Positions 4,753 to 58,388 of a DNA stretch of 64,000 nt are shown here, one piece after another. Position 1 is the first letter of the stretch, and each line of letters starts with the position of its first letter. The notes under the pieces were generated by a model. The model did not search any database. It was not told the DNA's origin and saw nothing but the letters and a program-made list of their open reading frames with translations. A program made the position numbers and the translations under genes. Origin of the DNA: Phycisphaerales bacterium (lineage in GTDB: Bacteria > Planctomycetota > Phycisphaerae > WQYP01); the NCBI GenBank assembly GCA_027313145.1, contig DAHVEJ010000001.1:6698-70697 (forward strand), in the 5' to 3' direction.

Positions 4753-5318
4753 ACGCCAACACGATTCCTTATCAGATATTTTAACAGAACGGCAATGGTT
4801 TTCCCGTCCACGATCTCATTGGAGGCAATCATCGCGAGAATTTTATCCGGTGCCATGGCCTGCACCGTGATGGTTTCGTTTTCTTCCAGAGCCTGCGGGC
4901 CGGGGGTTAAACCGGTGGCAATAAAGGCGTACATTTTCTCAGTGAGAATCCCCGGCGAGGTGTAAAACCAGCCAAACGGTTTAATATCAATCGCTTGGTA
5001 ACCGGTTTCTTCAATAAGTTCCCTGCCGGCACAAAGTTCCGGTGGTTCCGGCGGTTCAAGCGTCCCGGCGGCTAATTCCCAGAGCCATTGGCCCACGGTA
5101 TGCCGCAGGTTGCGGATCATGACAATATCACCGTTCTGCAGCACGGGCAGGATAATCACAGCTCCCGGATGCAGCACCACTTCGCGCACCAATCGCTTGC
5201 CGGAAGCGCTGGTGACGGTGCGCAGGGCCATATCCACGCGTGTGCCCTTATAGACAATCTGGTCCTCAAATCCCATTGACGGCGTTGAACTCATGCTCAT
5301 AATCCTTTCGCGATCCAA
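4749..5318 (-). CDS. NUDIX hydrolase (ADP-ribose pyrophosphatase-like).
   Basis: Nudix box G..E....RELIEETG (AAGTLEPPE...CAGRELIEETG). Overlaps the upstream gene by 4 nt. Confidence 0.8.
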   Translation of the reverse strand: MDRERIMSMSSTPSMGFEDQIVYKGTRVDMALRTVTSASGKRLVREVVLHPGAVIILPVLQNGDIVMIRNLRHTVGQWLWELAAGTLEPPEPPELCAGRELIEETGYQAIDIKPFGWFYTSPGILTEKMYAFIATGLTPGPQALEENETITVQAMAPDKILAMIASNEIVDGKTIAVLLKYLIRNRVGV

Positions 5319-5357: not shown

Positions 5358-6959
5358 ATGTTACCAGTTTCCGAAACAAATGAGCCGGAATTGCCGCCCC
5401 CGGACGGGGATTTTGAAGAACAGATTGTCGAGGAAGTGCCGGTGGGCGAAGTAACGCTCATTTTGCCCACTGAGCCAACGGAATCGCGCATGGCCCGCCT
5501 GCACGCCAAAGCCCGTGCCCTGGAGCAGATTCCCGGCGTTTATCTGCTTAAAGATACACGGGACGTGGTGATTTACGTGGGAAAATCCCGATCCCTGCGC
5601 GACCGCGTCAGCAGCTATTTTATAGCCTCCACGGATTTAGGCCCGGTCAAACAGCGCCTGTTGGATTATGTCGTGGATTTTGACATCCTGACGTGTGATT
5701 CAGAAGTGGAAGCCCTGCTCATTGAGAGTCGGCTCATTAAAGATTTGCATCCGCGATTTAACGCCCGGCTCTCTGACGGGAAAAGCTACCCGTACCTGGA
5801 AATTACCACACGCGAGGATTTCCCCGGGGTCTATGTCACACGGCAGCCGCAAACCAGCGGCACGAAGCTTTACGGCCCTTTCATCAGCGGCTATGCGCTT
5901 AAACAGGCGGTCCTGTACATGCAGCGGGCCTTTAAGTTCCGCACATGTCATCTGGAAATTTATGAGGAAGATAACCGGCGGCGGCAATTTCGCCCATGCA
6001 TGCTCTACGCCATCAAGCAATGCACCGCTCCCTGTGCCGATAGAATTAGCCGCCCGCAATATCTGGAGGATATTGAACGACTGAAGAAATTTCTGGATTC
6101 CAGCCGGGGCGATGCGTTAAAGCAGATGACCGCGGACATGGAGGCGGCTTCCGCGGCGCTGGATTTTGAAACAGCCGCGCAGTTACGAGATCAGATTAAG
6201 GCCTTAAAATCCCTGGCGCACCGTGGCAAGGGGGCCAAAGTGATGCAGCCGGAATTGTTTTTCCAGGATCATCAGGCCGGCGTTCGGCAATTGCAGGACG
6301 TGCTGGAACTCGATGAACCCGTGCGGTCCATTGAAGCCATTGACATCGCCCATTTTCAGGGTGAAGCGACCGTTGGTTCACTGGTGAGTTTCATGGATGG
6401 CCGGCCGTTTAAGGGGGGCTACAAGCGATTCCGCATAAAAACGGTGACAGGCATTGACGATTTTCGGTGTATCGCTGAAGTGGTATCTCGGCGGTACCGG
6501 GAAGCGGGACATGGCAATGAATTGTATCCGGATGTCATACTCATTGACGGCGGTCTGGGGCAGCTTCACGCCGCGCAGGGAGCCTTTGCCCAGATGGATA
6601 TCAAGCCGCCGATGGTCATCAGTCTGGCCAAGCGTGAGGAAGAAATTTATATGCAGGGCCGAGCCACGCCGTTCAAGCTTTCCCGCACCAATGCGGCCTT
6701 GAAGCTCCTGCAATTTGCCCGTGATGAAGCCCACCGCTTTGCCCAAAGTTACCATCACCTGTTAATTGCCCGTCGGCAGTTTCAAGACACGCTGCGCGGC
6801 AGCACCGGGAAGCTTAAGATTAAGCGCAAAACCCGCTCAAAAGCAGCAGGTTCCGAGGCTTCCAAAGATAGTGCCACCCCCACAACCGATGAATTCAAAG
6901 TGTTATCCGAACAGGAAATTCGCGATCTGACCGCCAAACCGACTGCCCAACCACCTTGA
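5358..6959 (+). CDS. uvrC: Excinuclease ABC subunit C (UvrC), apparently lacking the C-terminal (HhH)2 domain.
   Basis: N-terminal GIY-YIG (GVYLLKD..VIYVGKS), UvrB-interacting region and RNase H-like endonuclease domain. It ends at 533 aa with a low-complexity basic tail. Confidence 0.88.
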   Translation: MLPVSETNEPELPPPDGDFEEQIVEEVPVGEVTLILPTEPTESRMARLHAKARALEQIPGVYLLKDTRDVVIYVGKSRSLRDRVSSYFIASTDLGPVKQRLLDYVVDFDILTCDSEVEALLIESRLIKDLHPRFNARLSDGKSYPYLEITTREDFPGVYVTRQPQTSGTKLYGPFISGYALKQAVLYMQRAFKFRTCHLEIYEEDNRRRQFRPCMLYAIKQCTAPCADRISRPQYLEDIERLKKFLDSSRGDALKQMTADMEAASAALDFETAAQLRDQIKALKSLAHRGKGAKVMQPELFFQDHQAGVRQLQDVLELDEPVRSIEAIDIAHFQGEATVGSLVSFMDGRPFKGGYKRFRIKTVTGIDDFRCIAEVVSRRYREAGHGNELYPDVILIDGGLGQLHAAQGAFAQMDIKPPMVISLAKREEEIYMQGRATPFKLSRTNAALKLLQFARDEAHRFAQSYHHLLIARRQFQDTLRGSTGKLKIKRKTRSKAAGSEASKDSATPTTDEFKVLSEQEIRDLTAKPTAQPP

Positions 6960-7063
6960 TTCAATAAAGCGATCCCGAGAGCACCGCGAGGCCCCTTCAC
7001 CGCTGCCCTGACCCGCCGTAGCGTTAGGCAGGAGCCCACCCGCTTGATCCGAAAATAGCCCTT

Positions 7064-7343
7064 GGAGACTGTCCGAGTAATGGCCGGGATTGCGATGGGG
7101 CTGAAATAGCCCGTATTCGCGGCGGAGGATCGAGCTGACTCTGGATAATGAGTCTGCGAGATCCGACAACAAAGCAGACGGGGCATTTCAGGCCCACCCG
7201 CAGGGCGGGATGCTTTTTGGCTCCCCTCTGCGGCGCAGTTCCTCGGCGTACCATCCGTGTCAGGTACGCCATCGTCGCTGCTTCTTGTATGTTGGAGCCA
7301 AAAATCATCCCGGCGCAACCTGGCCATTACTCGGACAGGCTCC
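7064..7343. repeat. Repeat family A, full-length copy: 280-bp element bounded by 22-bp imperfect terminal inverted repeats (GGAGACTGTCCGAGTAATGGCC ... GGCCATTACTCGGACAGGCTCC) with nested internal stems.
   Basis: TIRs at 7064-7085 and 7322-7343. Inner stem TTTTTGGCTCC/GGAGCCAAAAA (7214-7224 / 7294-7304) encloses hairpin GGCGTACC/GGTACGCC. A 145-bp 5' core is repeated at 32047-32192. Confidence 0.7.
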
Positions 7344-7613
7344 TAGATAACGCGGTGGGGTATTCCGGGAACAATGCGGGCAGTTCGAGGCATCAGGAAC
7401 AATGCACCATCATCTGGGCCGGGTGTCAAGAAACAGGTGACTGTCCCTAATTTCAGTGCCCGCCGCAGAATCTGGGGTAACGCTGTTTTCCCCACCCATC
7501 GCTTACATGCTTCAATTCAATTTGAACTTAACAACGCAAGCGGCTCTTGCCACGTCGTCAAGTCTTGCCTATAATCATTCATCAAAGCTCAACTACATTC
7601 TAGGAATGAAGCC

Positions 7614-15265: not shown

Positions 15266-16437
15266 AACCTTGGCGACATTTATACTATGCGCAAAATTCC
15301 TTTTTCGCCACTAGGAGCATGTCCGGGTGCTCTGTAACGCCTAAAAAAACGCCCGGCAATTCAGCAGCCAAAGGCCACCGAATTGCCGGGACAGGTCTCT
15401 CCCCCCCTCCGGGGGGGGTGAGCCTTGCGCCTTCCGCCGTGGGAAAGGCGCAAAGCCACCGCACTTCTCTCTCTTTCTCCCTCCGCAAATTGTCTTTCTA
15501 CCAGGCGCGCCCAAAGGCGCTGACGAACTTGAATCTTTGGCCGCAACTCAGGAGCGTTCCCGGGTAATACCCGGACAGGCTCCTAGACGGCCATGGCGCT
15601 CTAACTCATCCAAACCCGTCCGATGACGGATAAACAAACCTCTCGCTCCCTCCATGGGGAAATCAAGCCACAAAATTTTTCTCATACGGGCGAATACCGC
15701 GAACCATAAGCTCATCGTGAGACCCATGGATTGCTGATTTTGAATTGCGTCAGCACGCGGATTAATTTTCGCCTCTTCTCTTGTGCAGTGTTTCAGTCGA
15801 TATGTGTCTGAATTCTTGTTACCTGCACAGTTAATGTATCGGCAGATACGCCCCGGAAGCACACAAAAAATTCGCGATTTTCCCCAGCAAATTCAGGGGT
15901 TCCAATAACATTACGCCCTGATAAAACTCCGCCGGTAAAAACGGCCGGCGAAGCACTTAGAACGCCGGAGTCAGTAGATGGTGACACCGGGCGCGCCCTG
16001 CGACCAAAATATCAGTGATCGCGATTCCGACGCATTCTAACTCCTATGTGCTCATGCAACGCCTAACCCATATCTCGCCATCCCCGCAGGTGATCTGGGC
16101 AATTTTCCCGGGCGGGGTCAATATTGTTGTTTAATGGGTGGGATCGCGCCAATGACAGCCGGAACCTTCGGCTGCGGCGGGCGAGTTTTTCGCGACGCGG
16201 CGGCACATTAAATGTGCCGGCTAACATCACTGATGAGGTGCCCCCCCGCGGGTGATCTGGGCAATTTTTCATCCACCGTGCCCGGTCATGCGTATAATGG
16301 GGTGACTTGGTGGAGTGCACTGTAAAAAGTCGAGTCGGCATTGTGCCGGCATAAGTATGAATAAGTTGTTGCGGTGATGCTGATGGTGGTCATCGGTACG
16401 CTAAAACAAGGTCTCTTTTTTGTGGAGTTGCGTTATG

Positions 16438-27840: not shown

Positions 27841-28075
27841 TCTGATTATTGATCATTGATCTTTGATCATTGACTTGGGCGCGGAAACCCCGCGGCCCGG
27901 AGCGCAGAAAGCGCCGACGGAATTGGCTTTCAGAGATTGTTTCATCCCCGGCAACCATGCTGTAATGTTCACCTTTCCACTGCTCGCCTGTTCTATTGGG
28001 CCGCCGCCCAATCCGCTCTACTTTCAACTCTCTACTGCTCGCCTGCTCTAATCGGGCCGCAGCCCGATTTGTACT
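27841..28075. repeat. Compound repeat: TGATCA cluster (27849-27872) plus two REP-like palindromic units (27978-28016 and 28033-28073, each with hairpin GGGCCGC(A/C)GCCC).
   Basis: Reverse complement of the REP doublet recurs at 36563-36660. The second unit overlaps the last codons of argF. Confidence 0.7.
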
Positions 28076-29004
28076 GCCAGCAGGGCCTTCTGGAAATGGA
28101 GGCGGTTTTCGGCTTGTTGAAATACGATGCTGCGGTCAAAATCCATGGCTTCATCGGTTATTTCCACGCCCCGATACGCCGGCAGGCAGTGCATGACTAC
28201 CGCATGGGCCGGGGCGGCGGAAATGAGTTTGGCGTTAATCTGGTAGGGGGTAAAAATCTTCATCCGCTGGGCTTTTTCAGTTTCCTGTCCCATACTGACC
28301 CAGGTGTCGGTGTAAATAATATCCGCGGCAGCAACCGCCGCCATGGGGTCGGTGGTAGCCTGAAAATCAAATCCCGGAATGCTGGATGCGGCTTGAACAT
28401 CGGACGCGTGCAGTTCATAACCAACGGGCGCGGCGATACGGAATTTCAATCCGAACACCGCGCAGGCTTCCATGAGTGATCGGGCGACATTGTTGCCATC
28501 GCCCACGTACGCCAGCGTCAGGTCGGAAAGAGATCCGAAGTGTTCGCGAATGGTCAGCAGATCGGCCATGACCTGACAGGGATGGCTGCGGTCGCTAAGG
28601 GCGTTGGTGACGGGGCGATTGCTGAAACGGGCCAGTTGCACAATGGTGTCATGGGCAAATGTCCGGGCCATAATGGCGTCACAGAATCCCGAAAGAACGC
28701 GTGCGGCGTCAGGGACGCTTTCGCGCGTGCCTAAGCCGATTTCACCGGGGGTAATGTAAATGGCGGCCCCGCCCAGATGCGTCATGGCCACTTCAAAACT
28801 CACCCGTGTGCGCAACGAGGGCTTTTCAAAAATCATGGCCAGGGTTTTGCCCGCGGCGACGGGGTCATTGCGTCCCGTGGAGCGGTATTGTGCTTTAAGC
28901 CGTTGGGCCACGGCCAGCAGATGCTCCAGCGTGGCGCGTGGCATGCCGAGAATGTCAATGAAATCAAATTTGCCGCCCGACGGCGCGCTGTTGGTCTGGT
29001 TCAT
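28048..29004 (-). CDS. argF: Ornithine carbamoyltransferase.
   Basis: STRTR carbamoyl-phosphate binding motif and an HCLP motif. Confidence 0.92.
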   Translation of the reverse strand: MNQTNSAPSGGKFDFIDILGMPRATLEHLLAVAQRLKAQYRSTGRNDPVAAGKTLAMIFEKPSLRTRVSFEVAMTHLGGAAIYITPGEIGLGTRESVPDAARVLSGFCDAIMARTFAHDTIVQLARFSNRPVTNALSDRSHPCQVMADLLTIREHFGSLSDLTLAYVGDGNNVARSLMEACAVFGLKFRIAAPVGYELHASDVQAASSIPGFDFQATTDPMAAVAAADIIYTDTWVSMGQETEKAQRMKIFTPYQINAKLISAAPAHAVVMHCLPAYRGVEITDEAMDFDRSIVFQQAENRLHFQKALLAVQIGLRPD

Positions 29005-32046: not shown

Positions 32047-32192
32047 GTCTAGGTGCCTGCCTTTCCGAGTAATGGCCGGGATTGCGATGGGTTTGAAATG
32101 CGCCGTATGCGATACGGTTGATCGAGCCGACTCTGAATAAGTAAGTCCGCGAGATTCGACAACAAAGCTGGCGGGGCATTTCAGGCCACCCG
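32047..32192. repeat. Repeat family A, partial copy (5' 145-bp core only, no right terminal repeat).
   Basis: Matches the left TIR and core of 7064-7208 at about 85% identity with small indels. Confidence 0.7.
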
Positions 32193-32946: not shown

Positions 32947-33723
32947 TTATTCTATCAGCGCCCGGCCAAACAGTCGCACGGCATTGGCGGAAGTAATTTC
33001 ACCGGTTTGTTCGATTGTCCACCCGCGTTCGGCGGCGACACGTTCGGCCACATACGCGGTAAATGCCGGCTCATTGGGTTTTATTTTTCGCACCGCCTGG
33101 GGGGTCAGGTAAGGCGCATCGGTTTCAATAAGTAAACGATCTTCCGGAACCAGTTTGCACGCCTCACGCACATCCGGGGCGTTTTTGTAGGTAATAACCC
33201 CGGTAAACCCGATGTACGCCCCCAATTCCAGCCATTGCGCACATTGCTCGGGTGTGCCGGTAAAACAATGCACCACAAAACGCATATTCGCGTGCCGGCG
33301 CATAATTTCCAAAGCATCCGCATGGGCGTCGCGCACATGGAGAATCATCGGCATACGTAATTGCTCGGCAAGATCAATCTGCCGCTGGAATACGGTTTTC
33401 TGCACCGGCGGCAGAGCCGAATTGCCATGATAATCAAGCCCGCATTCACCCACCGCCAGCACCTTTGCCGAACTGCCTATTGCGTATTGCAATTCATCGA
33501 CAAAATTTTCCGCGGCCTCGCCGGCATAATGCGGGTGAATACCCAGCGCCCCAAAAACTTGTCCATGCGCACCAAGCGTTTCCAGTACCCGTGGGTGATC
33601 CGCTGGATGCGTGCCAATGCAGATCATCCGAAACACGCCCGCCACAATCGCGCGTTGCACCACCTCCGCCTGCCGCTCTTCCAGGCCCTCATACGTAAGA
33701 TGGCAATGTGTATCAATCAACAT
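32947..33723 (-). CDS. tatD: TatD-family metal-dependent hydrolase/DNase.
   Basis: MLIDTHCHL start and conserved His/Glu/Asp positions. Confidence 0.9.
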   Translation of the reverse strand: MLIDTHCHLTYEGLEERQAEVVQRAIVAGVFRMICIGTHPADHPRVLETLGAHGQVFGALGIHPHYAGEAAENFVDELQYAIGSSAKVLAVGECGLDYHGNSALPPVQKTVFQRQIDLAEQLRMPMILHVRDAHADALEIMRRHANMRFVVHCFTGTPEQCAQWLELGAYIGFTGVITYKNAPDVREACKLVPEDRLLIETDAPYLTPQAVRKIKPNEPAFTAYVAERVAAERGWTIEQTGEITSANAVRLFGRALIE

Positions 33724-34106
33724 AACGGGATTTTACCATACCGCCACGTCACAGGGGAGATCTGAAAGCCCACCGGCCCGGCCGGAGCGGACGAGGGCAT
33801 CGGCGGCGCATTGGGATTTGGAACACTCGTGGTATACTCCTTTCAGCAGGTCCCGGTGCCCCGGGAGATCGGGACCCGTGGCCGTTGAATCCGTCCCGGA
33901 AAACCGAGGCGTGGCTTCGTTGGTGGGCCAGACGGGCGATCGAAAAACAGGCCCGACGGCAATTACCTCTTCGAGCTCGAAGCTCAACCGGGTATTACCC
34001 GTGGGCTGGTCAGATACGACGGCGGGCTCAAAGCCCATAAGCATACTCGACCGGCCCCGAACTGATCGGCCCTGATCCATGCCCGCTTTTTAATTACGAA
34101 CAAATT

Positions 34107-35195
34107 ATGCGATTGACCGAATCCAGTTCGTCCCGTACCCAGTGGCATAAGCATAACAAATTCCCTGCGCAAAACGGAACTCGCTTTCACAGAACCAATC
34201 AACCCGAAACATGTCATGCCCGGTACGACGCCTTCGGCAACGCCTTGGGCTTCAATGCGGCCACCGCATTAACAACATATCTGTACAGCTCAATGCCGTA
34301 TGATGCGGCCAGCGGCAATCACTACGACCACGCCCGGTTCTACGATTCCAGCACCGGCGAATTCACACAATCGGATTATGGCTACGCAGGTTCGCTTGCC
34401 AATCCGATGACTGATCTGCCGTACGCCTTCACCGGCGGCGATCCGATAAACATGCTGGATTTGAGTGGGAATGGCTTTAGCCTGCCGGATGTAATAGTCG
34501 CTATGGGGATTATTTCGACGCTGGGTGGGCCTAGCATCGGCGGCTTCGGCGCTGCAACGGGAGGGAGTCTCCTTCCCGACGCGGCGATATTTGGGTTCAG
34601 AATTACCTTGGACCGACAGCAGTTTGCCCGCTTCGGTTCTAACGTCGCCCTCGCGCTCGCCGGGGTCGGCGATGTCTCACCATTCTCGATGGTGCTCTCG
34701 GAGCTCGCGGGGTTCTTGGGCACGTTGAACTCGGAAATAGCAGGCCTGGTCGGCGGCAGTGCCTCTGCCGGGGTCACTGCGGGCCTTGAACTCATCGCAG
34801 ACCGCAAGGATGAGGTGCTGGGTGTCTACGGGTTCGTCGGTGCCGCTGTAGGAGTTTCTGCGGGGAGTGGGAACGTGAGCACGTCCATCTACGACGGCGT
34901 GGTCTGGGACGTGCCTAAATGGACGGACTACGCAGGTCCGTTTATTACGGTCGGCGGGACGGTCAGCCCCGGGATGCTCGGCGCAGGGGTCAACTATTTT
35001 TATGCGGTCGGCAACCCGAGCCAGCACGGCATTCTTACTTCGTTGAGCCAAGGTGCCGGGAGCGGCCTCGGCGGGTCGTATACGAAGTACAGAGCACTCG
35101 ACGAGGTCGGCCAAGGGCCAGGGGCGGTTCTGCCGTGGTTGGAGCTCTCGTGGCCACCGCCTTATGACTTCCTGATGCCATTGAATCTTGGTTGA
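34107..35195 (+). CDS. Orphan RHS/YD-repeat C-terminal fragment: end of the RHS core fused to a glycine-rich variable C-terminal (putative toxin) domain. N-terminally truncated.
   Basis: RYDAFGN, YDAASGN and ARFYDSSTGEFTQSD...DLPYAFTGGDPINMLDLSGN match the RHS-core terminus (RxYDPxxGRFxxxDP...NLYxYxxNNPxNxxDPxGL). An in-frame stop 23 codons upstream leaves no long N-terminal RHS body. Confidence 0.7.
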   Translation: MRLTESSSSRTQWHKHNKFPAQNGTRFHRTNQPETCHARYDAFGNALGFNAATALTTYLYSSMPYDAASGNHYDHARFYDSSTGEFTQSDYGYAGSLANPMTDLPYAFTGGDPINMLDLSGNGFSLPDVIVAMGIISTLGGPSIGGFGAATGGSLLPDAAIFGFRITLDRQQFARFGSNVALALAGVGDVSPFSMVLSELAGFLGTLNSEIAGLVGGSASAGVTAGLELIADRKDEVLGVYGFVGAAVGVSAGSGNVSTSIYDGVVWDVPKWTDYAGPFITVGGTVSPGMLGAGVNYFYAVGNPSQHGILTSLSQGAGSGLGGSYTKYRALDEVGQGPGAVLPWLELSWPPPYDFLMPLNLG

Positions 35196-35201
35196 GGCGC
35201 C

Positions 35202-36110
35202 ATGGCGCGTAGGAGGCTATCCATGAGGTTATTTTCAACCGTCCGTTCGCTCTTTTCGACTTTGGCAATCTTGGCGGGCCTGGCGGCGGCCCTGTCCTTC
35301 GTAGCCGATTTTGCGTTGACCTATTCGCACGGGGGCGGGGTCACTCCGTACACGCGCGAATCGAGTGGACACTATTTTCTAGTCGCGCACGGGGCATCGT
35401 ATCAGGTTTCGGGTACCTTATTTTGGCCCGCTTGGTGGCTTGAGCGTATCGTTTTTGGAGGCTGCGCAGCTTTATTGGTGGAGCTCGTGATAGAGGTAAT
35501 TTCAGTGCTTTGGTACGGCGCTCGAGGATTGCCCCCGCCGCAGAGTGCGGTGCCACTCCGGATGAACGGCAAACGCGGCGAACGCGCGGCCGCCGTGGAA
35601 CATCCTAATATCCTGTGGTCCGAGCCTTATCTTTACGAGATCCGAAGGCTGCCGCGCCCGGCGGCATTATATTCATGGGTACCGGGCCGTGTCGTCATGG
35701 CGGTCTTTGCCTTCACGGCGGTGATCTTTGCATCCTGCGCGGCAGCGCAATACGCCGCTGGCCAGCCGCACCGCGCTGTGGCAGGCCTCTGGTCCTTCGC
35801 GGCCATCTGGCTGCTGGTCGTGGTGCTTGCTGGGGCGGTGGGAGCTGCCTGTTACCTGGCGCTGGTGCTCGCCCCGGCGGGCGTGTTCATCTGGAAAGGC
35901 AAACTCCTGCTAGAGAAACCACCGGCATCGCTGAGTCCGGACGATATTGATCGAGTCGTTGTTGAGTTCCCCGAGCACGGTTACGGGATTGTCCAGGTTC
36001 ACACAAGGAAGGGAATACGCACAGTGGGAATACCCGCTGGGACAAACCTAGCGGAGCTGCAAAATTTTTTGGGGGAAAAGGTTTCGGTGACGAAGGATGG
36101 GCGGCAATGA
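35202..36110 (+). CDS. Membrane protein, candidate immunity protein for the adjacent RHS C-terminal domain.
   Basis: Sits immediately downstream (7 nt) of the toxin tip, with multiple TM helices and no other recognisable domain. Confidence 0.4.
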   Translation: MARRRLSMRLFSTVRSLFSTLAILAGLAAALSFVADFALTYSHGGGVTPYTRESSGHYFLVAHGASYQVSGTLFWPAWWLERIVFGGCAALLVELVIEVISVLWYGARGLPPPQSAVPLRMNGKRGERAAAVEHPNILWSEPYLYEIRRLPRPAALYSWVPGRVVMAVFAFTAVIFASCAAAQYAAGQPHRAVAGLWSFAAIWLLVVVLAGAVGAACYLALVLAPAGVFIWKGKLLLEKPPASLSPDDIDRVVVEFPEHGYGIVQVHTRKGIRTVGIPAGTNLAELQNFLGEKVSVTKDGRQ

Positions 36111-36245
36111 CCGTACTCGCCGATGACAGCTACAGGTATGGCGCTGATGGTTTGAAAACTGGAGCCGTGGAATACACGCTGAGTGTGGACGGCAGCCCTG
36201 GCACCATAACCTCGTCGCGGAATTATGACGCGCTGGATCGTTAAT
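36108..36245 (+). pseudogene. Residual YD-repeat (RHS) fragment, 45 codons.
   Basis: Translation ...SYRYGADGLKTGAVEYTLSVDGSPGTITSSRNYDALDR contains two YD-repeat units. Start overlaps the previous stop (ATGA). Confidence 0.55.
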
Positions 36246-36524
36246 ACAGGAAGTGTCCAGCGATGGTGCCAGAACAGCAGTGCCGAACCGCACCGGGAAA
36301 GCGAAACCGGGACGTGATTAGTTAATTGAGATAGCGGCAGATTTAGTGGTTTACTGGATTGTGGTTGGCGCGGCGATAAAATGGATGGCATTCTGATGCT
36401 TGGGTGGCCGCAGCGGTTGCGGGGTGCCGGGATGGATCGGGTTCCCACCCCCGTCCTCCGCTTTCCTCCACCGCCAACCGTGGTGAATTCCGTCGTGTCT
36501 GCGTGCCTTCTGAAACGGCCGATT

Positions 36525-36665
36525 ACAATGATCAATGATCGATGAACACTGATCAATAACAGGGCAAATCGGGCTGCGGCCAGATTAGAGCAGGTGAGCA
36601 GCGCAGAGTTGAGGAGTCGAACGGATTGGGCTGCGGCCCAATAGAACAGGTGAAGTTAGAGAGTT
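36525..36665. repeat. Compound repeat: TGATCA cluster (36528-36560) plus REP-like doublet in inverted orientation relative to 27978-28073.
   Basis: CAAATCGGGCTGCGGCCAGATTAGAGCAGGTGAGCAG is the reverse complement of 28036-28073. The second unit at 36623-36660 matches 27978-28016. Confidence 0.7.
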
Positions 36666-37384
36666 GAACGGTCGAGCAAATAAGGCTGATAGCAAAAGGG
36701 CGGTTGTCGCCGAAAGGGGAAACTTCTTCTGCGACCGGTTGGCTGTTTACTGCTCCGAGATTTGTATGGTCCGGATTTATTCCGAAAGTCGAAACACTTT
36801 CAGTGTCGCGTGCACTCCGAGGGACAAGGAATCTCTGCCGTGCGCACACCGAAGGCGATTGTTTCTATTTGGTTCGCTCAATGCCCAATAGCCGACCATG
36901 ACGCGCAACAAACTGATCCGTTGTGAAATGTAACGGGCACGTAACGAGTTTATAAAAGTGGCGGCGGCTTTAGCTGTTGCTGGATTGTGCTTGGCGCGGC
37001 GGCAATCGCGATGCTGAGTGCCGCCCCGGCGGTGAGAAAGTTGATGGTATCCGGCAGGCGGCGTTGCGCTTAATGGACAATGAGTAACAAAACGGCCCCG
37101 GCGCGGGGCATTCATGAGACGTAGTGGGGGGCGCCGCTTATAGGTTTTAGGTTGCGGATCGCTTTGGGGTACGGGGCCGGGCGGGCGCGCGGGCACGATG
37201 CCCGCGGCTTAATGGGTGGCGGTGCGCGGGATTATGCGTGGTTTTTTCCGCACCGATTTGTCCCGAGCACGACCAATCCCGGCGCGGCTTAATTGGATGC
37301 GGAAATCGGATTGACCACACCGTACACGTTGCAGAGAAAGGAGTTTATTCCAGGCGCGCCGGGATGGATGTTTACAATCTCCAA

Positions 37385-37470
37385 TGATCACTGATCACGG
37401 ATCACGGATCAATGGCCACAGATCAAAAAATCTGGAACCTCCGATATTTTGTTCATCGATCATTGGTCTT
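37385..37470. repeat. Third TGATCA/GATC cluster (at least 7 GATC in 90 bp), ending in the family-A terminal motif GGCCATTGGTCGGACAGGCTCC (37499-37520).
   Basis: Direct reading of the sequence. Resembles the 27849-27872 cluster (GATCATTGGTCTTTGGTCTTTGA vs GATCATTGATCTTTGATCATTGA). Confidence 0.6.
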
Positions 37471-37553
37471 TGGTCTTTGAGCGAAGCGCCCACGGTCGCG
37501 ATTCCGGCCATTGGTCGGACAGGCTCCCGGATTTCGTCAGGAAACGGCGCGGA

Positions 37554-38369
37554 TCACGCGTTGATGCGGCCTTCCCAAGGGCTGCTGGCGGTGGCGTAGA
37601 GTTTGCGGGGAATGCGGCCGGCTTCGTAGGCCAGGCGGCCGGATTCGGTGGCCAGCATCATGGCGCGGGCCATTTTGGCGGGTTCGGCTGCTGCGGCCAC
37701 GGCTGTATTTAATAATACTGCGTCAACGCCTAATTCCATCGCTGCCGCTACATCGCTGGCGGTGCCCACGCCGGCATCCACAATAACCGGATACGTTGGA
37801 TCATTTTCCTTCAACTGCTCAAGAATAATGCGAATGGCGTTGGGATTCAGCACGCCCTGCCCCGAACCGATGGGTGAACCCGCGGGCATAACCGCGGCGG
37901 CACCGGCTTCTTTAATGCGTTTGCACAGCATGACATCGTCCGAGCAGTAAACCAGAACCTGAAAGCCGTCCTTAACCAGTGTCTTCAAGGCTTCCAGGGT
38001 GCCAACGGGTTCGGGGAGAAGTGTTTTGGTATCTCCCAGGCATTCCAGTTTTACCCAATCGGCACCGCGGTAGCCCGAGCCGGTTAACATTTCGCGGCCT
38101 AATTTCGCCACGCGCACCACTTCTTCGGCGTTAAAACAGCCGGCGGTGTTGGGCAGGAGAATGTATTTTTGCGGATCAATAAAATCCAGAATATTGCGGC
38201 CGGAATTTTTATCCAGCAGTCGCTCGCGCCGCACGGCGACCGTAACAACTTGTGCTCCGCTTTCGTGGTGGCATTTCTGCATGAGTTCCAGAGAACTGTA
38301 TTTGCCCGTACCGACAATCAGTCGGGATTGCAATTCGTAAGGTCCGATTTTCAAGGTTGTGGATGTCAT
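37554..38369 (-). CDS. thiG: Thiazole synthase.
   Basis: Full-length ThiG similarity ([19 protein letters not shown]...). Confidence 0.95.
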
Positions 38370-41070: not shown

Positions 41071-41260
41071 TTATTATGTTGCTCCTGGAGACACACGTTG
41101 CATTTTCGACTGCGCGGACAGGCTCCCAGCCTTCAGTGCCTTGATTGTTAATTTAATGGTCGCAGGTCGTGGTCGCAAGTGCAACGGGTGATTGGCTGCC
41201 GCAGGTCCGTTGGCCGGTGCGCTGCCGCGTAAAGTATCGCGCATCGGTTTTGTTGGGCGG

Positions 41261-41373
41261 GGCAATATTTCGGGGCAGGCGGCGAAATCGACGGCATAAA
41301 TGGCGGCACTAAGAGAATGCTTGGCCTTGGAAACGCGCATCGCAGAGGCCCGGCCGAATTTATTGCCACGCCC
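41261..41373. repeat. Repeat family B copy 2.
   Basis: About 86% identity to 19797-19907, same orientation, intergenic. Confidence 0.7.
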
Positions 41374-41538
41374 GTTATGTTGTCCCTGCAGGAAAATGGC
41401 TTGCTTATTGAGAGGAGAAGGAACATACTTGAACGTGTCAATAACATGATCGCGATGATGGGCGGCGGGTGGTTGTTGGTGGGTCCGCAGCCGAGGCGCG
41501 AACGGGCGTTGGGTCTAAATGAAAAGGAAGTGTGCTGC

Positions 41539-47421: not shown

Positions 47422-47630
47422 GGAGCACCGTGGTGATAACCCGGCGGTTGGCTTGCGGCATGAGATCAACCACCGGATTACCATCCGGTGCTATGCGGAC
47501 GCGTCCGGTTAAAGAAAAAAGGTACCTGACACCTTTTTTCATGGCCGTGGCATAGAGCACCGTGGTGATAACCCGGTGGTTGGCTTGCGGCATTGGATCA
47601 ACCACCGGATTACCATTCGGTGCTCTTGAG
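47422..47630. repeat. Two 75-bp direct repeats (47422-47495 and 47557-47630, about 90% identical). Each contains hairpin CACCGG-ATTACCAT-CCGGTG. They are separated by an A/T-flanked bidirectional terminator-like hairpin (47509-47536).
   Basis: Direct reading. Lies in the divergent intergenic region between the ArsR-methyltransferase gene and manA. Confidence 0.65.
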
Positions 47631-49965: not shown

Positions 49966-52900
49966 ATGAGTAAGAAAATAGAAAACCAGAATACTTCAGG
50001 GTTGAAGCAGGGTGCGGCCGGACCGATGGAAAGCCATCCATTTCTGGATGTGTTAAAACACCGGGTCATGGTATTTGACGGCGGATTAGGCACGCAGATA
50101 TTTGCCGCGAATCTGACGTTGGCCGATTTTAACAATCTGGAAAACTGCCCGGAAGTGCTGGTGCTTTCCCGGCCCGATGTAATTCAATCCATCCATGAAT
50201 CGTATTATGCCGCCGGGTCTGATACGGTGGAAACCGATACGTTTGGTGCCAGTAAAATTGTTCTGGCGGAATTTGGCTTACAAGACCAGTGCCGGGAAAT
50301 AAACAGGAAGGCTGCGACGCTGGCGCGCAACGCCGCGAATAAATTTTCCACACCGGATCGTCCGCGCTTTGTCGCCGGTTCGATTGGCCCGGGCACCAAA
50401 GCCATCACGCTGGGCAACACCACGTTTGACATCATGCATGATTCCTACCTGGAGCAGGTTCGCGGCTTGCTCGATGGCGGGGTTGATGCGATTCTCATTG
50501 AAACATGTTTTGACCTGCTGCAGGCCAAAGTTGCGGTGATTGCCGCGACCGATGCCATGGAGGAAATGGGCGTTCGCGTTCCGATCATGGTGCAGGTAAC
50601 CATGGAAACCGTCGGCACGATGTTGCTGGGTACGGAAATGAACGCGGTGATTACCACACTGGAAGCGCTTCCGGTGGATGTCATCGGCATGAACTGCGCC
50701 ACCGGTCCGGAGCTGATGCGCCCGCACGTGGAAACCTTGAGTCAGAATTGTACGCGCTATTTATCCGTGCAGCCCAATGCCGGCCTGCCTGTGCTGCATG
50801 AGGGCCGCACCCATTTCCCGCTTGGAGCGGCGGAACTTGCCAAGGCCCATGTGGAATTTGTTCAGCAGTTTGGTGTCAATATTGTCGGCGGATGCTGCGG
50901 CACCACACCGGAGCATATCCGCGCTGTGGCGGCGGCGGTGGCACAATTAAAACCGGCAGTCCGCAGCGCACACGGGCGGAAAATGGATGCCGCGCATGCG
51001 ACTATTTCATCGTTGTATAGCGCGGTGGACGCCCGGCAGGATAATTCCATTCTCATTATCGGCGAACGCACCAATACCAACGGTTCCAAAAAATTCCGGG
51101 ATTGCCTCCTGGCCGCGGATTGGGACACGTTGACCGCCATCGGGCGCGAACAGGTGAAGGAAGGATCGCACGTTGTTGATGTCTGCGTGGATTATGTGGG
51201 CCGCAACGGCGTCCCGGACATGACCGATATTGTCCGGCGCTTTGCCAAGGAAGTCACCGCGCCCTTGATGATCGACTCGACACAGTTGGATGTCATCGAA
51301 GCCGGATTACAAGCCGCCCCGGGCAAGTGCATTGTCAATTCCATTAATCTGGAAGATGGCGAAGAAAAACTCGCCCGCATGGCCGCGTTACTGAAGCGCT
51401 ACGGGGCCGCCGTGGTCGCAGGCACCATTGATGAAGACAAAATTGAGGCCATGGCCAAAACCGCCGATCGTAAAATTGAAATTGCCAAAAGGCTGTACGA
51501 TCTGCTGGTTAATAAATACGGCATTCCGGAAACGAATATTTATTTCGATCCGCTCATATTTCCCATTGTTACCGGGCAGGAGGAAGTGCGGCGACTGGCG
51601 CTGGAAACCATTGACGGCATCCGTCGAATCAGTGAGGAACTGCCCAACTGCCATACCACGCTGGGGCTTTCCAACGTTTCCTTCGGGTTAAAGCCGTATG
51701 CGCGGCTGGTGTTAAACAGTGCGTTCTTCAATGAATGCGTCAAGGCGGGCTTGACCAGCGCGATTGTCCACGCCAGTAAAATTTTGCCGCAGAATAAAAT
51801 TGACCCGGAACATTACCAATGGGCACTGGATCTGATTTATGATCGGCAGCGGGAAGATTATAAGCCGCTGCAACTGCTGACGAATCTGGGTGCCCCGGCC
51901 AAAGTGGCGGAGGCCACAGAACAACTGCCGCTGGAGGAAAAACTGCGCCGGCACATTATTGACGGTGATAAGCAAAAACTGTCGGAACATCTTGATCAGG
52001 CCATGACCAAGTATGCGCCATTGGACATTATCAATGATCATCTGCTGGCCGGCATGAAAGTGGTGGGCGACTTGTTCGGCAGCGGGCAGATGCAGTTACC
52101 GTTTGTGCTTCAAAGTGCGGAAGTCATGAAAGCGGCGGTAGCCTATCTGCAACCCTTTATGCCCAAGAGCGAAGGCCAAAGCCGCGGAAGAATGGTTCTG
52201 GCCACCGTTAAGGGGGACGTGCACGACATTGGTAAAAATCTGGTGGATATTATTTTATCCAACAATGGCTATACGGTGGTCAACCTGGGCATCAAACAGC
52301 CCATCGCCAATATCGTACAGGCCGCAAAAGAACATAACGCCCAGATCATCGGTCTTTCCGGCCTGCTGGTAAAGTCCACGCTGGTCATGCGCGATGATTT
52401 GCAGGAACTTAATCGCCTGGGAATTGACATACCGGTAATTCTTGGCGGTGCGGCACTCACCCGCGGTTATGTGGAAAAAGATTTGCGCGATATTTACAAA
52501 GGCCCCTTGTTCTATGGCAAAGATGCCTTTGAGGGCTTGCGCGTCATGGACCACGTGGCAACCGGAAAAATCAGCGAGATTCTCGTTGCAACCGGTGAAT
52601 CCAGGCAACAGGCGGATTTGCGAGCCAAAGCAGGGGCCTCCCCGGTGACGCCGGAAACCGACATCCCCAAGATTACCTGCGATGATTATGCCAACTCCGG
52701 TATACGCACCGACGTTGCGGTGCCGGCGTTACCTTTTTACGGGTCGCGCGTGGTGACGGATATTCCGGTGGATGCGGTATTTCCCTATATTGACGAGGTG
52801 GCACTTTTCCGCGGCCAATGGCAGTTCAAAAGCGGCACCATGCCGCGCGATGAATTTCGTCAGTGGACGGAAAGCCATGTTCGCCCGATTTATAACCGCA

Positions 52901-53514
52901 TCAAGCAGAAATGCCGCGACCTGAATCTGCTGCGCCCGCAGGTGGTTTACGGCTACTTCTGGGTTCAGGCGGAAAAAAATGATTTAATTGTTTATGCCGA
53001 GGATAAAAAAACGCAGCGTCTGCGTTTTCATTTTCCCCGGCAACCGGGGCGCAAACGTTGGTGCCTTTCGGACTTTTTCCGTTCCGTGGATTCCGGCGAA
53101 ATGGACGTTCTGGCGTTGCAGTGCGTGACGGCGGGATCGGCCGTGGCCCCGTATGAAAAACAACTGTTTGAGCAGGGTGATTTCACCGAGTATCTCTACA
53201 TTCACGGGATGGGCGTACAGATTGCGGAAGCGTTGGCGGAAATGTGGCATAAACGCGTTCGCCAGGAATTGGGCATTGCGGATAAAGATGGTCCCACCAT
53301 GCGCGATATTTTCGCCTGCCATTTTCAAGGCTGCCGCTACAGCTTCGGCTACCCGGCCTGCCCGGATTTACAGGATGAAGAAAAGCTTTTCGCCCTGTTG
53401 GATCCCGCGCGCATCGGCTGCACATTATCCGAAAATTGGATGATTCAGCCGGAGCAATCCACCTCCGCGATGATCGTTCACCACCCCGAAGCCCGTTATT
53501 TTAACGTGCTGTAG
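49966..53514 (+). CDS. metH: Cobalamin-dependent methionine synthase.
   Basis: All four modules (Hcy-binding, pterin-binding, B12-binding and AdoMet activation) in 1182 aa. Confidence 0.97.
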   Translation: MSKKIENQNTSGLKQGAAGPMESHPFLDVLKHRVMVFDGGLGTQIFAANLTLADFNNLENCPEVLVLSRPDVIQSIHESYYAAGSDTVETDTFGASKIVLAEFGLQDQCREINRKAATLARNAANKFSTPDRPRFVAGSIGPGTKAITLGNTTFDIMHDSYLEQVRGLLDGGVDAILIETCFDLLQAKVAVIAATDAMEEMGVRVPIMVQVTMETVGTMLLGTEMNAVITTLEALPVDVIGMNCATGPELMRPHVETLSQNCTRYLSVQPNAGLPVLHEGRTHFPLGAAELAKAHVEFVQQFGVNIVGGCCGTTPEHIRAVAAAVAQLKPAVRSAHGRKMDAAHATISSLYSAVDARQDNSILIIGERTNTNGSKKFRDCLLAADWDTLTAIGREQVKEGSHVVDVCVDYVGRNGVPDMTDIVRRFAKEVTAPLMIDSTQLDVIEAGLQAAPGKCIVNSINLEDGEEKLARMAALLKRYGAAVVAGTIDEDKIEAMAKTADRKIEIAKRLYDLLVNKYGIPETNIYFDPLIFPIVTGQEEVRRLALETIDGIRRISEELPNCHTTLGLSNVSFGLKPYARLVLNSAFFNECVKAGLTSAIVHASKILPQNKIDPEHYQWALDLIYDRQREDYKPLQLLTNLGAPAKVAEATEQLPLEEKLRRHIIDGDKQKLSEHLDQAMTKYAPLDIINDHLLAGMKVVGDLFGSGQMQLPFVLQSAEVMKAAVAYLQPFMPKSEGQSRGRMVLATVKGDVHDIGKNLVDIILSNNGYTVVNLGIKQPIANIVQAAKEHNAQIIGLSGLLVKSTLVMRDDLQELNRLGIDIPVILGGAALTRGYVEKDLRDIYKGPLFYGKDAFEGLRVMDHVATGKISEILVATGESRQQADLRAKAGASPVTPETDIPKITCDDYANSGIRTDVAVPALPFYGSRVVTDIPVDAVFPYIDEVALFRGQWQFKSGTMPRDEFRQWTESHVRPIYNRIKQKCRDLNLLRPQVVYGYFWVQAEKNDLIVYAEDKKTQRLRFHFPRQPGRKRWCLSDFFRSVDSGEMDVLALQCVTAGSAVAPYEKQLFEQGDFTEYLYIHGMGVQIAEALAEMWHKRVRQELGIADKDGPTMRDIFACHFQGCRYSFGYPACPDLQDEEKLFALLDPARIGCTLSENWMIQPEQSTSAMIVHHPEARYFNVL

Positions 53515-57257: not shown

Positions 57258-57584
57258 AGTAATTTCTGCATCCACGGGATGGGCGTACAGATTGCGGAAG
57301 CGTTGGCGGAAATGTGGCATAAACGCGTGCGCCAGGAATTGGGCATTGCGGATAAAGATGGTCCCACCATGCGCGATATTTTCGCCTGTCATTTTCAAGG
57401 CTGCCGCTACAGCTTCGGCTACCCGGCCTGCCCGGATTTACAGGATGAAGAAAAGCTTTTCGCCCTGTTGGATCCCGCGCGCATCGGCTGCACATTATCC
57501 GAAAATTGGATGATTCAGCCGGAGCAATCCACCTCCGCGATGATCGTTCACCACCCCGAAGCCCGGTATTTTAACGTGCTGTAG
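57258..57584 (+). pseudogene. Duplicated 3' fragment of metH (last about 108 codons), near-identical to 53190-53514.
   Basis: Protein tail HGMGVQIAEALAEMWHKRVRQELG...HHPEARYFNVL is identical. Only a few synonymous nucleotide differences. Homology continues about 60 nt past the stop codon. Confidence 0.85.
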
Positions 57585-58144: not shown

Positions 58145-58388
58145 TGCGGGACCCCCATGTTCATTTCAAATCTGTTTCGTGATGATACGGACAGCGATGG
58201 AATACGGCAACGCTTGCCTAACGAAAAGGAGTATAAACCATGACGGGCTTTTCTTTTTGCTCTGGCGCGCTGGCAGGAAGTGGAAATCATGCGGACAAAA
58301 TGCCTGTAGATGACGGTAACTACGGACGGATGGTACAACTATGCGAACGACCATGCGCAGCAAGACCCATACGAGCACCGGTGCGCCG

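Follow-up and report, generated by a model that had tools for sequence, protein, structure and literature searches.

Known orphan toxin modules and IS110-group elements

Orphan rhs-CT/rhsI and cdiA-CT/cdiI modules are described in Dickeya dadantii, E. coli and Yersinia (Poole et al. 2011, PMC3150448). In these modules the end of the core is kept and followed by a variable tip with a cognate small gene. Further core fragments lie downstream, no delivery domain of their own is present, IS disruption occurs at times, and strains differ in them. The same traits are found in the window analysed here, a stretch of 64 kb (64,000 nucleotides) from a Phycisphaerales bacterium. The best explanation of its tatD–thiG interval (~33770–37530) is an rhs polymorphic-toxin locus of a Phycisphaerales-type planctomycete, of which the decayed tail is left. 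The locus departs from the enterobacterial modules in several respects: the 64 kb contain no full rhs gene upstream, an IS110 insertion site takes the place of a recombination junction as the upstream boundary, the apparent start codon comes from the IS, the bacterium is a planctomycete, and the core-end motif is DPINML instead of DPxGL.

The second comparator is the IS110 group, exemplified by IS621 (Durrant et al. 2024, PMC11208160). These elements encode a DEDD + Transposase_20 recombinase. Their left end is long and non-coding, their right end short and their core 2 nt in length; a promoter arises where the two ends are joined, and two stem/loop/hairpin modules have segments matching the target and donor halves, core included. 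Full copies of the element discussed below share the recombinase, the ends, the 2-nt core and the joined-end promoter, and their left end has two such modules with candidate matching segments. For 85.7% of IS110-group elements a bridge RNA is predicted, in most cases within the left end (PMC11208160). The core here is TA and not CT as in IS621, the preferred target consists of the Tyr-Asp codons of Rhs YD repeats instead of REP-type intergenic repeats and, unlike IS621, the element in the window is a dead fragment. ISPpu9, a REP-targeting member of the group (PMC12288879), likewise lands in a sequence with many copies per genome. Unlike the REP target of ISPpu9, the repeat targeted here lies inside polymorphic-toxin genes, so each insertion truncates a toxin gene.

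An Rhs tip truncated at an IS110-family insertion site

The region 33770–37530 is very probably an orphan Rhs tip truncated by an IS110 remnant. Its parts are as follows.

33770..33830, minus strand: transposase 5′ remnant, ~18–20 codons, start ATG changed to ACG; remainder of the gene and right IS end lost by deletion
33831..34223, minus strand: non-coding left end of the IS, ~390 nt, candidate bridge-RNA gene; boundary from 10 copies
34107..34223, plus strand: pseudo-leader, ATG + 38 codons (MRLTESSS...PETCHA); IS DNA in opposite-strand reading, fused in frame to the Rhs tip
34224..34225: core dinucleotide TA, bases 1 and 2 of the Tyr40 codon in the ORF; from the flanks of 10 copies
34224..34469, plus strand: Rhs-associated core, final 82 aa, running from the last YD repeat to ...GGDPINMLDLSG; TIGR03696
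34470..35195, plus strand: putative C-terminal toxin domain, 241 aa, rare uncharacterised family; 18% Gly, small-xxx-small run near the N-terminus
35202..36110, plus strand: candidate immunity protein, 302 aa, 4–5 TM segments by hydropathy
36107..36244, plus strand: YD-shell fragment, 45 codons, in overlap with the stop codon of the immunity gene; opens the next array module, which is truncated
36291..37029: non-coding filler; ~85-nt element duplicated at 36291–36375 and 36932–37029
37293..37530, plus strand: decayed Rhs junction with an internal stop; blastx against P0003, P0013, P0002 and others

The three reading frames of the initial annotation (34107–35195, 35202–36110 and the YD fragment) are all present at those coordinates. 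The RHS-core end proposed for the first is borne out by the NCBIfam profile TIGR03696 (Rhs_assc_core), which matches aa 40–121 with 38.1 bits (curated cutoff 32.5) in an alignment extending to model position 75 of 76. This core part is 45–72% identical to Rhs relatives. Its core-end motif, PYAFTGGDPINML, is a putative variant of the canonical PxxxxDPxGL; in the region, which reads PYAFTGGDPINMLDLSG, DP is kept, and the spacing and GL differ. Pfam has no match in the ORF; RHS_repeat (PF05593) and TEN_YD-shell (PF25023), the families of the long YD-repeat shell of roughly 1000 aa or more, are not detected.

The ORF does not open with YD repeats, as had been assumed. Its first 38 codons (34107–34220) are an IS110-family end read on the opposite strand, and Rhs homology begins at 34221–34224. 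The in-frame stop reported earlier is the TAA at 34038–34040, and the 22 codons between it and the ATG are also IS end. That no RHS body precedes the tip also holds: searched by tblastn with full Rhs proteins, the 64 kb yield Rhs-like DNA at 34221–35177 and 36116–36241, to which blastx adds the decayed piece at 37293–37530. An Rhs N-terminal delivery domain (PAAR, VgrG-binding or signal sequence) is absent from the ORF, for which Pfam is silent and whose N-terminus is IS-derived. Within the 64 kb there is no full-length rhs gene upstream of the tip and there are no secretion genes; the neighbours are housekeeping genes.

The minus strand of ~33770–34223 carries the non-coding left end and first ~18 transposase codons of an IS110-family element of ~1.93 kb; ~450 nt of it survive in the window. 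From 33769 to 34232 the DNA is 87–88% identical to IS copies in Phycisphaerales/Planctomycetota MAGs. The left end matches L001 (4178–4862) and L002 (9676–10126) at 87–88%, both adjoining DEDD_Tnp_IS110+Transposase_20 genes, and identity to these two begins at 33769–33773. In tblastn, aa 2–21 of the L002 transposase match 33827–33768 at 75% identity, the sole match in the window, and the copy alignment reveals the mutated start (CCACGAGTG versus CCATGAGTG). The left end is dead here because recombinase and right end are missing. The DEDD (PF01548) + Transposase_20 (PF02371) recombinase is encoded by the full copies L002, L010, L013 and L014, and the IS ends were fixed on L002, L013 and L014. 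Full copies have a left end of ~380 nt, a right end of ~68 nt, the core TA and no long terminal inverted repeats; joining their ends creates a promoter sequence (TTGACA, 17 nt, TATGAC). Exact-pattern scans for the IS end gave only 2 loci in genome_contigs and 1 in metagenome_contigs; most copies lie in ENA assemblies and were reached via protein look-up.

The pseudo-leader opens 11 proteins at 80–98% identity, each of which then enters a different Rhs sequence, diverging at RYD. The leader-bearing genes of relatives lie ~265 bp from divergent DEDD_Tnp_IS110/Transposase_20 genes. Since conservation of the leader is at the DNA level and stops exactly at the IS boundary, it is not a genuine protein domain; a secretion leader and a true N-terminal domain were rejected. 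A group II intron, an integron attC site and a shufflon site, also considered for the conserved leader, were dropped once an IS110 transposase had been recognised next to it, along with the two ends of the IS. Leader and Rhs tip share a frame because the IS always enters between TA and C of a Tyr codon.

The tip was orphaned at an IS110-family insertion site, and the IS remnant supplies the apparent start of the ORF. An Rhs remnant with a membrane partner is largely ordinary, and its one unusual twist is this false start. The insertion site at the point of truncation, as the cause of orphaning, is the new result; the initial annotation could not see it.

The toxin tip and its membrane partner

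The C-terminal domain, first described as Gly/Ala-rich and 250 aa long, is indeed Gly-rich, starts with a Gly-rich, hydrophobic stretch and measures 241 aa. It had been called unrecognised, and Pfam likewise finds nothing in its 241 aa. Foldseek against the PDB gives no significant match for the tip, and a profile search of PDB sequences matches the Rhs core part and not the tip. An 8-stranded beta core is predicted, with an overall pLDDT of only 66. A homologous tip forms the C-terminus of P0181, a 1938-aa Rhs protein with 19 RHS repeats, and another lies in an orphan array behind a 1110-aa Rhs gene (L009). The full-length rhs gene upstream of orphan rhs-CT modules is found in the relative L009 and not within this 64 kb.

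The protein of 35202–36110 has hydrophobic segments at aa 16–41, 82–107, 158–186 and 190–237, in agreement with the polytopic membrane protein proposed earlier. Pfam finds nothing in it, nor in the YD fragment, and it has only two database relatives. In L016/L017 the homologous toxin tail has the protein P0187 behind it, and in L005 the ORF after toxin P0003 is similar to the N-terminal 2-TM part. L016/L017 provide an independent instance of the whole unit (toxin tail, membrane protein, YD fragment), with the toxin frameshifted and the immunity gene intact. The core is thus followed by a divergent tip and a co-varying small gene, as in orphan rhs-CT modules, and the pairing speaks for the candidate membrane immunity gene that had been placed downstream of the tip. 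The family of tip and membrane partner comprises about 20 cluster representatives among 1.84 billion proteins.

The 45-codon YD fragment is real (36116–36241 is 57–64% identical to the N-proximal YD-shell segment of the Rhs relatives P0038, P0018 and P0035), but the remnant array is longer than first stated, reaching to about 37530 and adjoining thiG. The ~85-nt duplicates bracket REP-like units (36560–36653), which are inverted copies of 27984–28076. Within 37293–37530 the order is DAEIGLTTPYT..., a recurrent ~120-nt ‘element B’ (...ITDQ...LFIDHWSLVFERSA), then HG.DSGHWSDRL (approximately DAHGSTRL). Collectively, the core match, the homologous tips of P0181 and L009 and the L016/L017 unit sustain the earlier idea of an orphan, displaced or decaying CT/immunity cassette.

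How the tip acts can be modelled only tentatively. Because a Gly-rich amphipathic start and a Vap-like barrel are combined with a membrane-embedded putative immunity protein, the toxin might attack the membrane. The Vap fold of Rhodococcus equi (VapB 4cv7, VapG 5aeo) is an 8-stranded antiparallel barrel of two Greek keys, which the predicted 8-stranded core may resemble, and VapA has membrane activity (PMC10100859). Identity between Vaps and tip is 11–17%, with no Vap Pfam match in the tip and no recovery of the match by Foldseek; moreover, the R. equi Vaps are secreted or surface virulence proteins of an actinomycete and not Rhs tips. It is a serious possibility that the tip, with a small beta-barrel as its scaffold, has an enzymatic or binding role and that the membrane protein is not its immunity factor. 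The Gly-rich hydrophobic start, the adjacency of toxin and membrane protein conserved in L016/L017 and the recurrence of the N-terminal 2-TM module after P0003 argue against this reading.

Alleles and history of the locus

In the course proposed here, an IS110 element landed in the last YD repeat of the Rhs core, and a later deletion would have taken the Rhs shell and what else there was of the IS. The tip, lacking shell and delivery domain, would then not be exported. What keeps the module in place may chiefly be the putative immunity gene; the tip may also be a silent reserve, which could return to a full rhs gene by way of ~250 nt of homologous core.

Alternatively, the cassette of IS end, tip, immunity gene and YD fragment could have reached the tatD–thiG interval already truncated, via illegitimate or microhomology-mediated recombination, a course considered possible and somewhat doubtful. 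It would agree with the housekeeping neighbours, with the lack of an Rhs body or secretion genes within 64 kb, and with a GC content (~0.60–0.62) slightly above that of the flanks (~0.53–0.56). Segment 33775–37094 is present in L015/L020/L021 and absent from L018/L019, where about 300 nt of private DNA replace it between flanks 97–99% identical; the L019 allele diverges after 33774. A short repeat, GAAAGCCnAnCGG, occurs at both borders of the variable segment (33757 and 36293). These allelic data have been counted for import, but the cassette-free allele and the repeat fit in situ deletion and import of a truncated fragment equally well, and two alleles give no direction of the event. Against import, the decayed junction at 37293–37530 lies outside the allele-differing segment and is shared with L019, which suggests that Rhs material has been at the locus for longer.

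Insertion sites and a candidate bridge RNA

In the window, the IS sits on the strand opposite to rhs, at the TA of the Tyr codon in the last YD repeat of the Rhs core (NY|DAFGN). Reconstituted targets read YTYSY|DARGYRI in L002 and TQYTY|DGLGG in L014, and TACACCTACGACGGC is an example of a YD target sequence. In relatives, the IS end abuts 9 distinct Rhs YD junctions, a set found via the leader peptide and therefore biased to in-frame coding flanks. Three insertion sites (L008, L010 and L013) lie outside Rhs genes; L008 was rejected as a YD site, its flank being a transposase-like gene on the other strand.

As judged from sequence, the IS probably picked its site through a bridge RNA encoded in the retained left end. 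The consensus fold of this end has two stem/loop/hairpin modules, with 2 compensatory pairs, and the windows that vary in these modules, the only ones to do so, match the copies' own flanks. The relevant segments are the following.

34037..34046, minus strand: candidate 5′ guide of the first (target) loop, GTATGCTTAT; one of two variable windows, with the stop at 34038 inside
34024..34036, minus strand: hairpin GGGCTTTGAGCCC closing the first loop; copy alignment and consensus fold
34014..34023, minus strand: candidate 3′ guide of the first loop, GCCGTCGTAT; flank match
33964..33992, minus strand: second (donor) loop, made of CCCGGT, hairpin GAGCTTCGAGCTC and AGAGGTA; invariant across copies

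The candidate 3′ guide matches the flank GGCGTCGTA (34234–34226 + core), the reverse complement of TAC-GAC-GCC. The outer segments of the donor loop match the start of the IS left end (reverse complement of TACCGGG) and the right-end terminus (CAGAGGTA). The left target guide, GCCGUCGUA, would pair with the complement of TAY-GAY-GS, and G:T wobble would accommodate synonymous bases at the third codon positions. In each loop, the 5′–3′ order of the half-guides is presumably opposite to that of IS621. With wobble counted, the 3′ guide pairs with 7/7 left flanks at 7–9 of 9 positions, and where the guides of L008 and L013 have private changes, the flanks of the same copies show the counterpart. 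The guide windows were chosen after the alignment had been seen, and windowed tests replaced a free 9-mer search. In these post hoc windows, variable columns amount to 7/9, versus 50/399 elsewhere (p = 2e-5); the 9-mer flank of L014 stands verbatim in the left end, a match reached in 53 of 20,000 shuffles (p = 0.003); and between the 5′ guide and its own right flanks 10 of 20 positions agree (p = 0.014).

It is unlikely that the element picks TAYGAYGS-like sites by a protein-level or structural DNA preference, with coincidental loop matches and no RNA guiding to YD codons. For such a preference speak the free 9-mer guide-match search, which is not significant (282/2000 shuffles reach the observed sum), the right flanks of L010 and L013 (2/5), which fail to match their 5′ guide, the limitation of stem covariation to 2 pairs, and Rfam, which in E-value mode over 33000–38000 returns no family and a single spurious lncRNA match. 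The bridge-RNA reading itself has against it the three insertion sites outside Rhs genes and the 5′ guide in the window (TGCT), which would mismatch the upstream Rhs sequence expected from relatives (..ATGAAC|TA). The single-sequence fold of the IS end is unremarkable (z = -1.55). Against a protein-level or structural preference stand the concentration of variation in two loop windows, the mirrored private changes and the prevalence of predicted bridge RNAs in the group cited above.

It is very improbable that the fused frame is a stand-alone gene, with an outward promoter and start codon given by the IS end and a leader-core-toxin protein made in the cell, where it would be paired with the membrane protein in an addiction-like manner. 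In favour of this, all 362 codons of the ORF are intact, a 99.7% identical copy exists in another assembly, the leader is in frame in 11 relatives and one plus-strand promoter-like site is present (33811–33838). Against it, leader conservation is that of IS-end DNA whose functional strand is the other one, and an open frame across the 38 leader codons has a chance probability of 0.16 and is fixed in phase by the insertion. The promoter-like site corresponds to the transposase RBS region in reverse complement, in L016/L017 a frameshifted toxin lies beside an intact immunity gene, and translation signals are typically missing from orphan CTs (PMC3150448).

Consequences for annotation and toxin turnover

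What public assemblies list as a 362-aa ‘RHS repeat-associated protein’ is a chimera in which IS DNA is joined to an Rhs tip, and at least 10 further database proteins have the same artefactual N-terminus. The tip and its membrane partner define a rare toxin/immunity candidate family in Planctomycetota. If the guide reading is true, the element would offer a natural case of a bridge RNA directed to a repeat motif in coding sequence, with G:T wobble for synonymous codons, and IS110 activity would be linked to the turnover of polymorphic-toxin loci. It is tempting, although doubtful, to propose that this planctomycete IS110 lineage is an rhs specialist, whose bridge RNA has wobble-tolerant G residues tuned to the Tyr-Asp codons of YD repeats. 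Each rhs gene would then offer dozens of landing sites, and IS insertion, together with recombination between IS ends and other YD sites, would be a main generator of truncated, orphaned and reshuffled Rhs tips.

Rhs content of the locus

The three ORFs of the initial annotation are present as described and lie, together with the end of an insertion sequence (IS), in a cassette flanked by housekeeping genes (ctaA, a TPR protein gene and tatD on one side; thiG and thiS on the other). The relevant features are:

About 33770-34223, minus strand: IS110-family remnant, with the core TA at 34224-34225
34107-35195: ORF with a 362-aa product (leader, Rhs core end and toxin tip)
35202-36110: candidate membrane immunity protein, 302 aa
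36116-36241: YD fragment
37293-37530: another decayed Rhs junction, with an internal stop inside

The Rhs core end attributed to the first ORF is recovered by TIGR03696 (NCBIfam Rhs-associated core) at aa 40-121, scoring 38.1 bits (curated cutoff 32.5); a Pfam search of the remaining 241 residues gave no match. The second product is polytopic as supposed, with four to five hydrophobic segments, and the YD fragment shows 57-64% identity to the N-proximal YD-shell segment of Rhs relatives. With full Rhs proteins as tblastn queries, Rhs-like DNA in the 64 kb is confined to 34221-35177 and 36116-36241.

Origin of the leader

The first ORF had been thought to start with YD repeats; its N-terminus is instead IS110-family DNA. 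Among 48 relatives of its product, retrieved from 5.8 billion proteins, 11 have in common a leader of ~38 N-terminal residues (MRLTE.SSSRTQWHKHNKFPAQNGTRFHRTNQPETCH; 80-98% identity), after which they diverge into different Rhs sequences, in every case from R-Y-D. In three related contigs (L001, L002 and L004), a divergent gene with DEDD_Tnp_IS110 and Transposase_20 domains lies ~265 bp from the leader-bearing gene. Window segment 33769-34232 has 87-88% DNA identity to this group of loci, the homology taking in ~60 nt at the start of the transposase gene as well as all DNA up to the Y-D codons. Used as a tblastn query, the L002 transposase matched the window through residues 2-21 only (33827-33768), and the start codon of this remnant is ACG, not ATG. 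By homology, taking the shared leader, the transposase adjacency, the DNA identity and the match to residues 2-21 together, what the window carries on its minus strand is a dead IS110-family element, reduced to its non-coding left end and ~18 codons; on the same grounds, the ATG and leader of the ORF are element DNA read backwards. A 38-codon open frame has a probability of 0.16 by chance; since insertion always falls between the TA and the C of a Tyr codon, the leader frame is set. At 33860-33880 (minus strand), near the transposase RBS, the remnant carries 11 inserted nucleotides (GATCTCCCGGGGCACC versus GAT-CC) that no other copy has, a further sign of decay.

The IS110-family element and its insertion sites

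The limits of the element come from full copies that retain both flanks (L002, L013 and L014): ~1.93 kb, with a left end of ~380 nt beginning CCRGGYATGACATG, a right end of ~68 nt terminating in ...GGTTGACAAGATCAGAGG, and the core TA at both junctions. A long left end and a short right end are the pattern of the IS110 group, whose bridge RNAs are encoded there (PMC11208160). In the joined ends, TTGACA stands 17 nt ahead of TATGAC. Rejoined flanks read YTYSY/DARGYRI in L002 and, preceded by clear YD repeats, TQYTY/DGLGG in L014.

Nine distinct Rhs sites have been used, counting in the leader-bearing proteins, which bias the set towards in-frame coding flanks: YDAFGNA, YDANGSQ, YDDQGNR, YDGHNSV, YDAGRPS, YDARGYR, YDAMNRR, YNTGTVA and YDGLGGA. 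Three copies (L008, L010 and L013) lie outside Rhs genes. A 3.3-kb rhs gene contains the motif TAYGAYGS 6 times, compared with 12 occurrences on both strands of the 64-kb window. L001 holds a 3'-truncated copy, and L008 another left-end-only remnant, made by a different route since it adjoins integrase and S24-peptidase DNA. In L011 (1-360), the transposase protein is identical to that of L010/L012 (P0051), and beyond ~55 nt upstream of the ATG the DNA is unrelated, so this copy has lost the left end carrying the putative guide loops or had it replaced.

Candidate bridge RNA

Ten aligned left ends are nearly invariant except in two short windows flanking the hairpin GGGCTTCGAGCCC: GAG-TA[CACC/TGCT/TGAT/TGTT/TCGC]TA-T on the 5' side and GC[CGTCG/GATCG/CGTAG/CGTCA]TA-TCTG on the 3' side. 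The segment on the 3' side reads as the left flank does, with pairing in 7/7 copies at 7-9 of the 9 positions once rG:dT is allowed; changes private to L008 or to L013 reappear in the flank of the copy concerned. Complementarity between the 5' segment and the right flank extends to 4/4 variable positions in L012 and to 3/4 in each of L002 and L014; in L010 and L013 this segment does not match the copy's own right flank. The ends of the element itself are matched by a second module (CCCGGT, hairpin, AGAGGTA), which does not vary among copies. The RNAalifold fold contains two stem/internal-loop/hairpin modules plus a 3' stem; two pairs are compensatory.

With windows picked after the data had been seen, a limit on all three of these figures, variable columns fall inside the guide windows at 7/9 versus 50/399 elsewhere (p = 2e-5), the L014 9-mer flank is found verbatim (53/20,000 shuffles), and 5' guides match their own flanks at 10/20 (p = 0.014). 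Other results, like the mismatched right flanks of L010 and L013, count against such guiding. An unguided 9-mer search for guide/flank matches was not significant, and an Rfam search gave no family here. Within the loops, the half-guide order is seemingly inverted relative to IS621. Nor would the window's own 5' guide fit the Rhs sequence that relatives predict upstream. That this candidate bridge RNA directs the element to YD codons is likely but unproven.

Toxin tip and membrane partner

Four proteins (P0002-4 and P0008) are related to the tip (aa 122-362) at ~50% identity, and a second branch has the motifs G.ELL...LYGY.G and VVW..P...DY.GPF in common. The family is rare, with only 20 matches at E <= 1e-3 among 1.84 billion cluster representatives, one of them the C-terminus of P0181 (1938 aa, 19 RHS repeats). 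P0002 is an orphan sited behind a 1110-aa Rhs gene. The AlphaFold model of the tip (pLDDT 66, pTM 0.62) has a beta core at residues ~98-215 (pLDDT 70-86) and gave no Foldseek match. The tip contains 18% Gly, with a small-xxx-small run at tip residues 16-33.

The membrane protein has two database relatives only. In L016/L017, an independent copy of the cassette, P0187 (37% identity over aa 1-134, 80% over aa 135-302) stands between the same toxin tail, here with a frameshift, and the same YD fragment. The frameshift (L016 2-268; L017 1-212) lies just ahead of ...LSWPPPYDFLMPLNLG and the downstream membrane protein is intact, a pattern that would fit selection on immunity, not toxin. The first ~110 aa of the window's protein weakly resemble a 2-TM ORF after toxin P0003 in L005 (E 0.13). 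VapA makes membranes permeable to protons (PMC10100859). The best guess, offered tentatively and with somewhat less than even confidence, is a predicted membrane-acting toxin neutralised within the membrane.

Polymorphism and origin of the cassette

The inner end of the IS remnant (about 33770-33775) adjoins the region upstream of tatD. Among contigs whose TatD is identical, two arrangements occur. In the first, L020 and L021 run on into the remnant, and L015 is 99.1% identical to window 34551-37540. In the second (L018 and L019), 33774 is linked to the region from about 37095 by ~300 nt of private DNA and one copy of an element present twice in the window (36291-36375 and 36932-37029). The cassette is therefore polymorphic among near-identical strains. 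The short repeat GAAAGCCnAnCGG stands at both cassette borders (33757-33770 and 36293-36306); written out with its variants, this direct repeat is GAAAGCC(C/G)A(C/A)C(C)GG. It recurs at both ends of the private segment in L019, and may be a microhomology or recombination hotspot.

The orphan cassette arose either by deletion of a resident rhs locus or by import of an already truncated fragment, with neither preferred here. The decayed junction at 37293-37530, common to the window and L019, favours long residence of Rhs material at the tatD-thiG locus.

In at least 15 relatives, a recurrent ~120-nt 'element B' (in translation ...ITDQKFG.SDDLFIDHYSLIIERSA), with GATCAC and TGGTCTT repeats, takes the place of ~270 aa of Rhs shell, always between ...NTNY(I/V)QTETS and DAHGSTR; the YD fragment of the window starts at the position of its left junction (PVTL/A). 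Element B may represent a MITE, a scar of recombination or a junction within an orphan array. One terminus of a MITE-like element also adjoins the decayed Rhs junction. These and other repeats are located as follows:

Window 37370-37500; L005 ~4640-4800 and 6767-6834; L001 11681-11784: element B
7061-7346: MITE-like element, ~290 nt, with 28-nt inverted termini (7061-7088 and 7319-7346)
32061-32187, 15559-15587 and 37496-37531: its partial copies in other intergenic regions
27968-28076: REP-like palindromic units (TCGCCTG..GGGCCGC.GCCC..), tandem near 28 kb
36560-36653: inverted REP-like copies, 87-90% identity, within the gap downstream of the cassette
53192-53491 and 57262-57561: 300-nt direct repeat, 98% identity
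53760-53827 and 58210-58277: nearby 68-nt repeat, 82% identity
19794-19911 and 41258-41375: 118-nt repeat, 85% identity
47420-47492 and 47552-47624: 73-nt repeat, 93% identity, 132 nt spacing

The 300-nt and 68-nt repeats, both spaced by ~4.1-4.4 kb, suggest a segmental duplication including the 3' end of a 1182-aa ORF (49966-53514). The 118-nt and 73-nt repeats are of a dispersed or near-tandem kind.

Comparison with known systems

Judged from its sequence, the cassette is an orphan rhs-CT/immunity module of the same kind as those of Enterobacteria, in which translation signals are usually missing and immunity genes kept, sometimes with IS breakage (PMC3150448). It is not a complete Rhs toxin, since both the shell and a delivery domain are absent. 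What is new is the exact cause of the tip truncation together with the IS-derived pseudo-start, the uncharacterised tip/immunity family, and an IS110 lineage that has landed repeatedly on the Tyr-Asp codons within Rhs repeats, with its candidate bridge RNA as the probable means. None of the 12 papers that a literature search listed describes IS110 targeting of rhs repeats, which does not prove that no such description exists. The cassette in itself is ordinary; the specialisation of the IS is the part worth pursuing.
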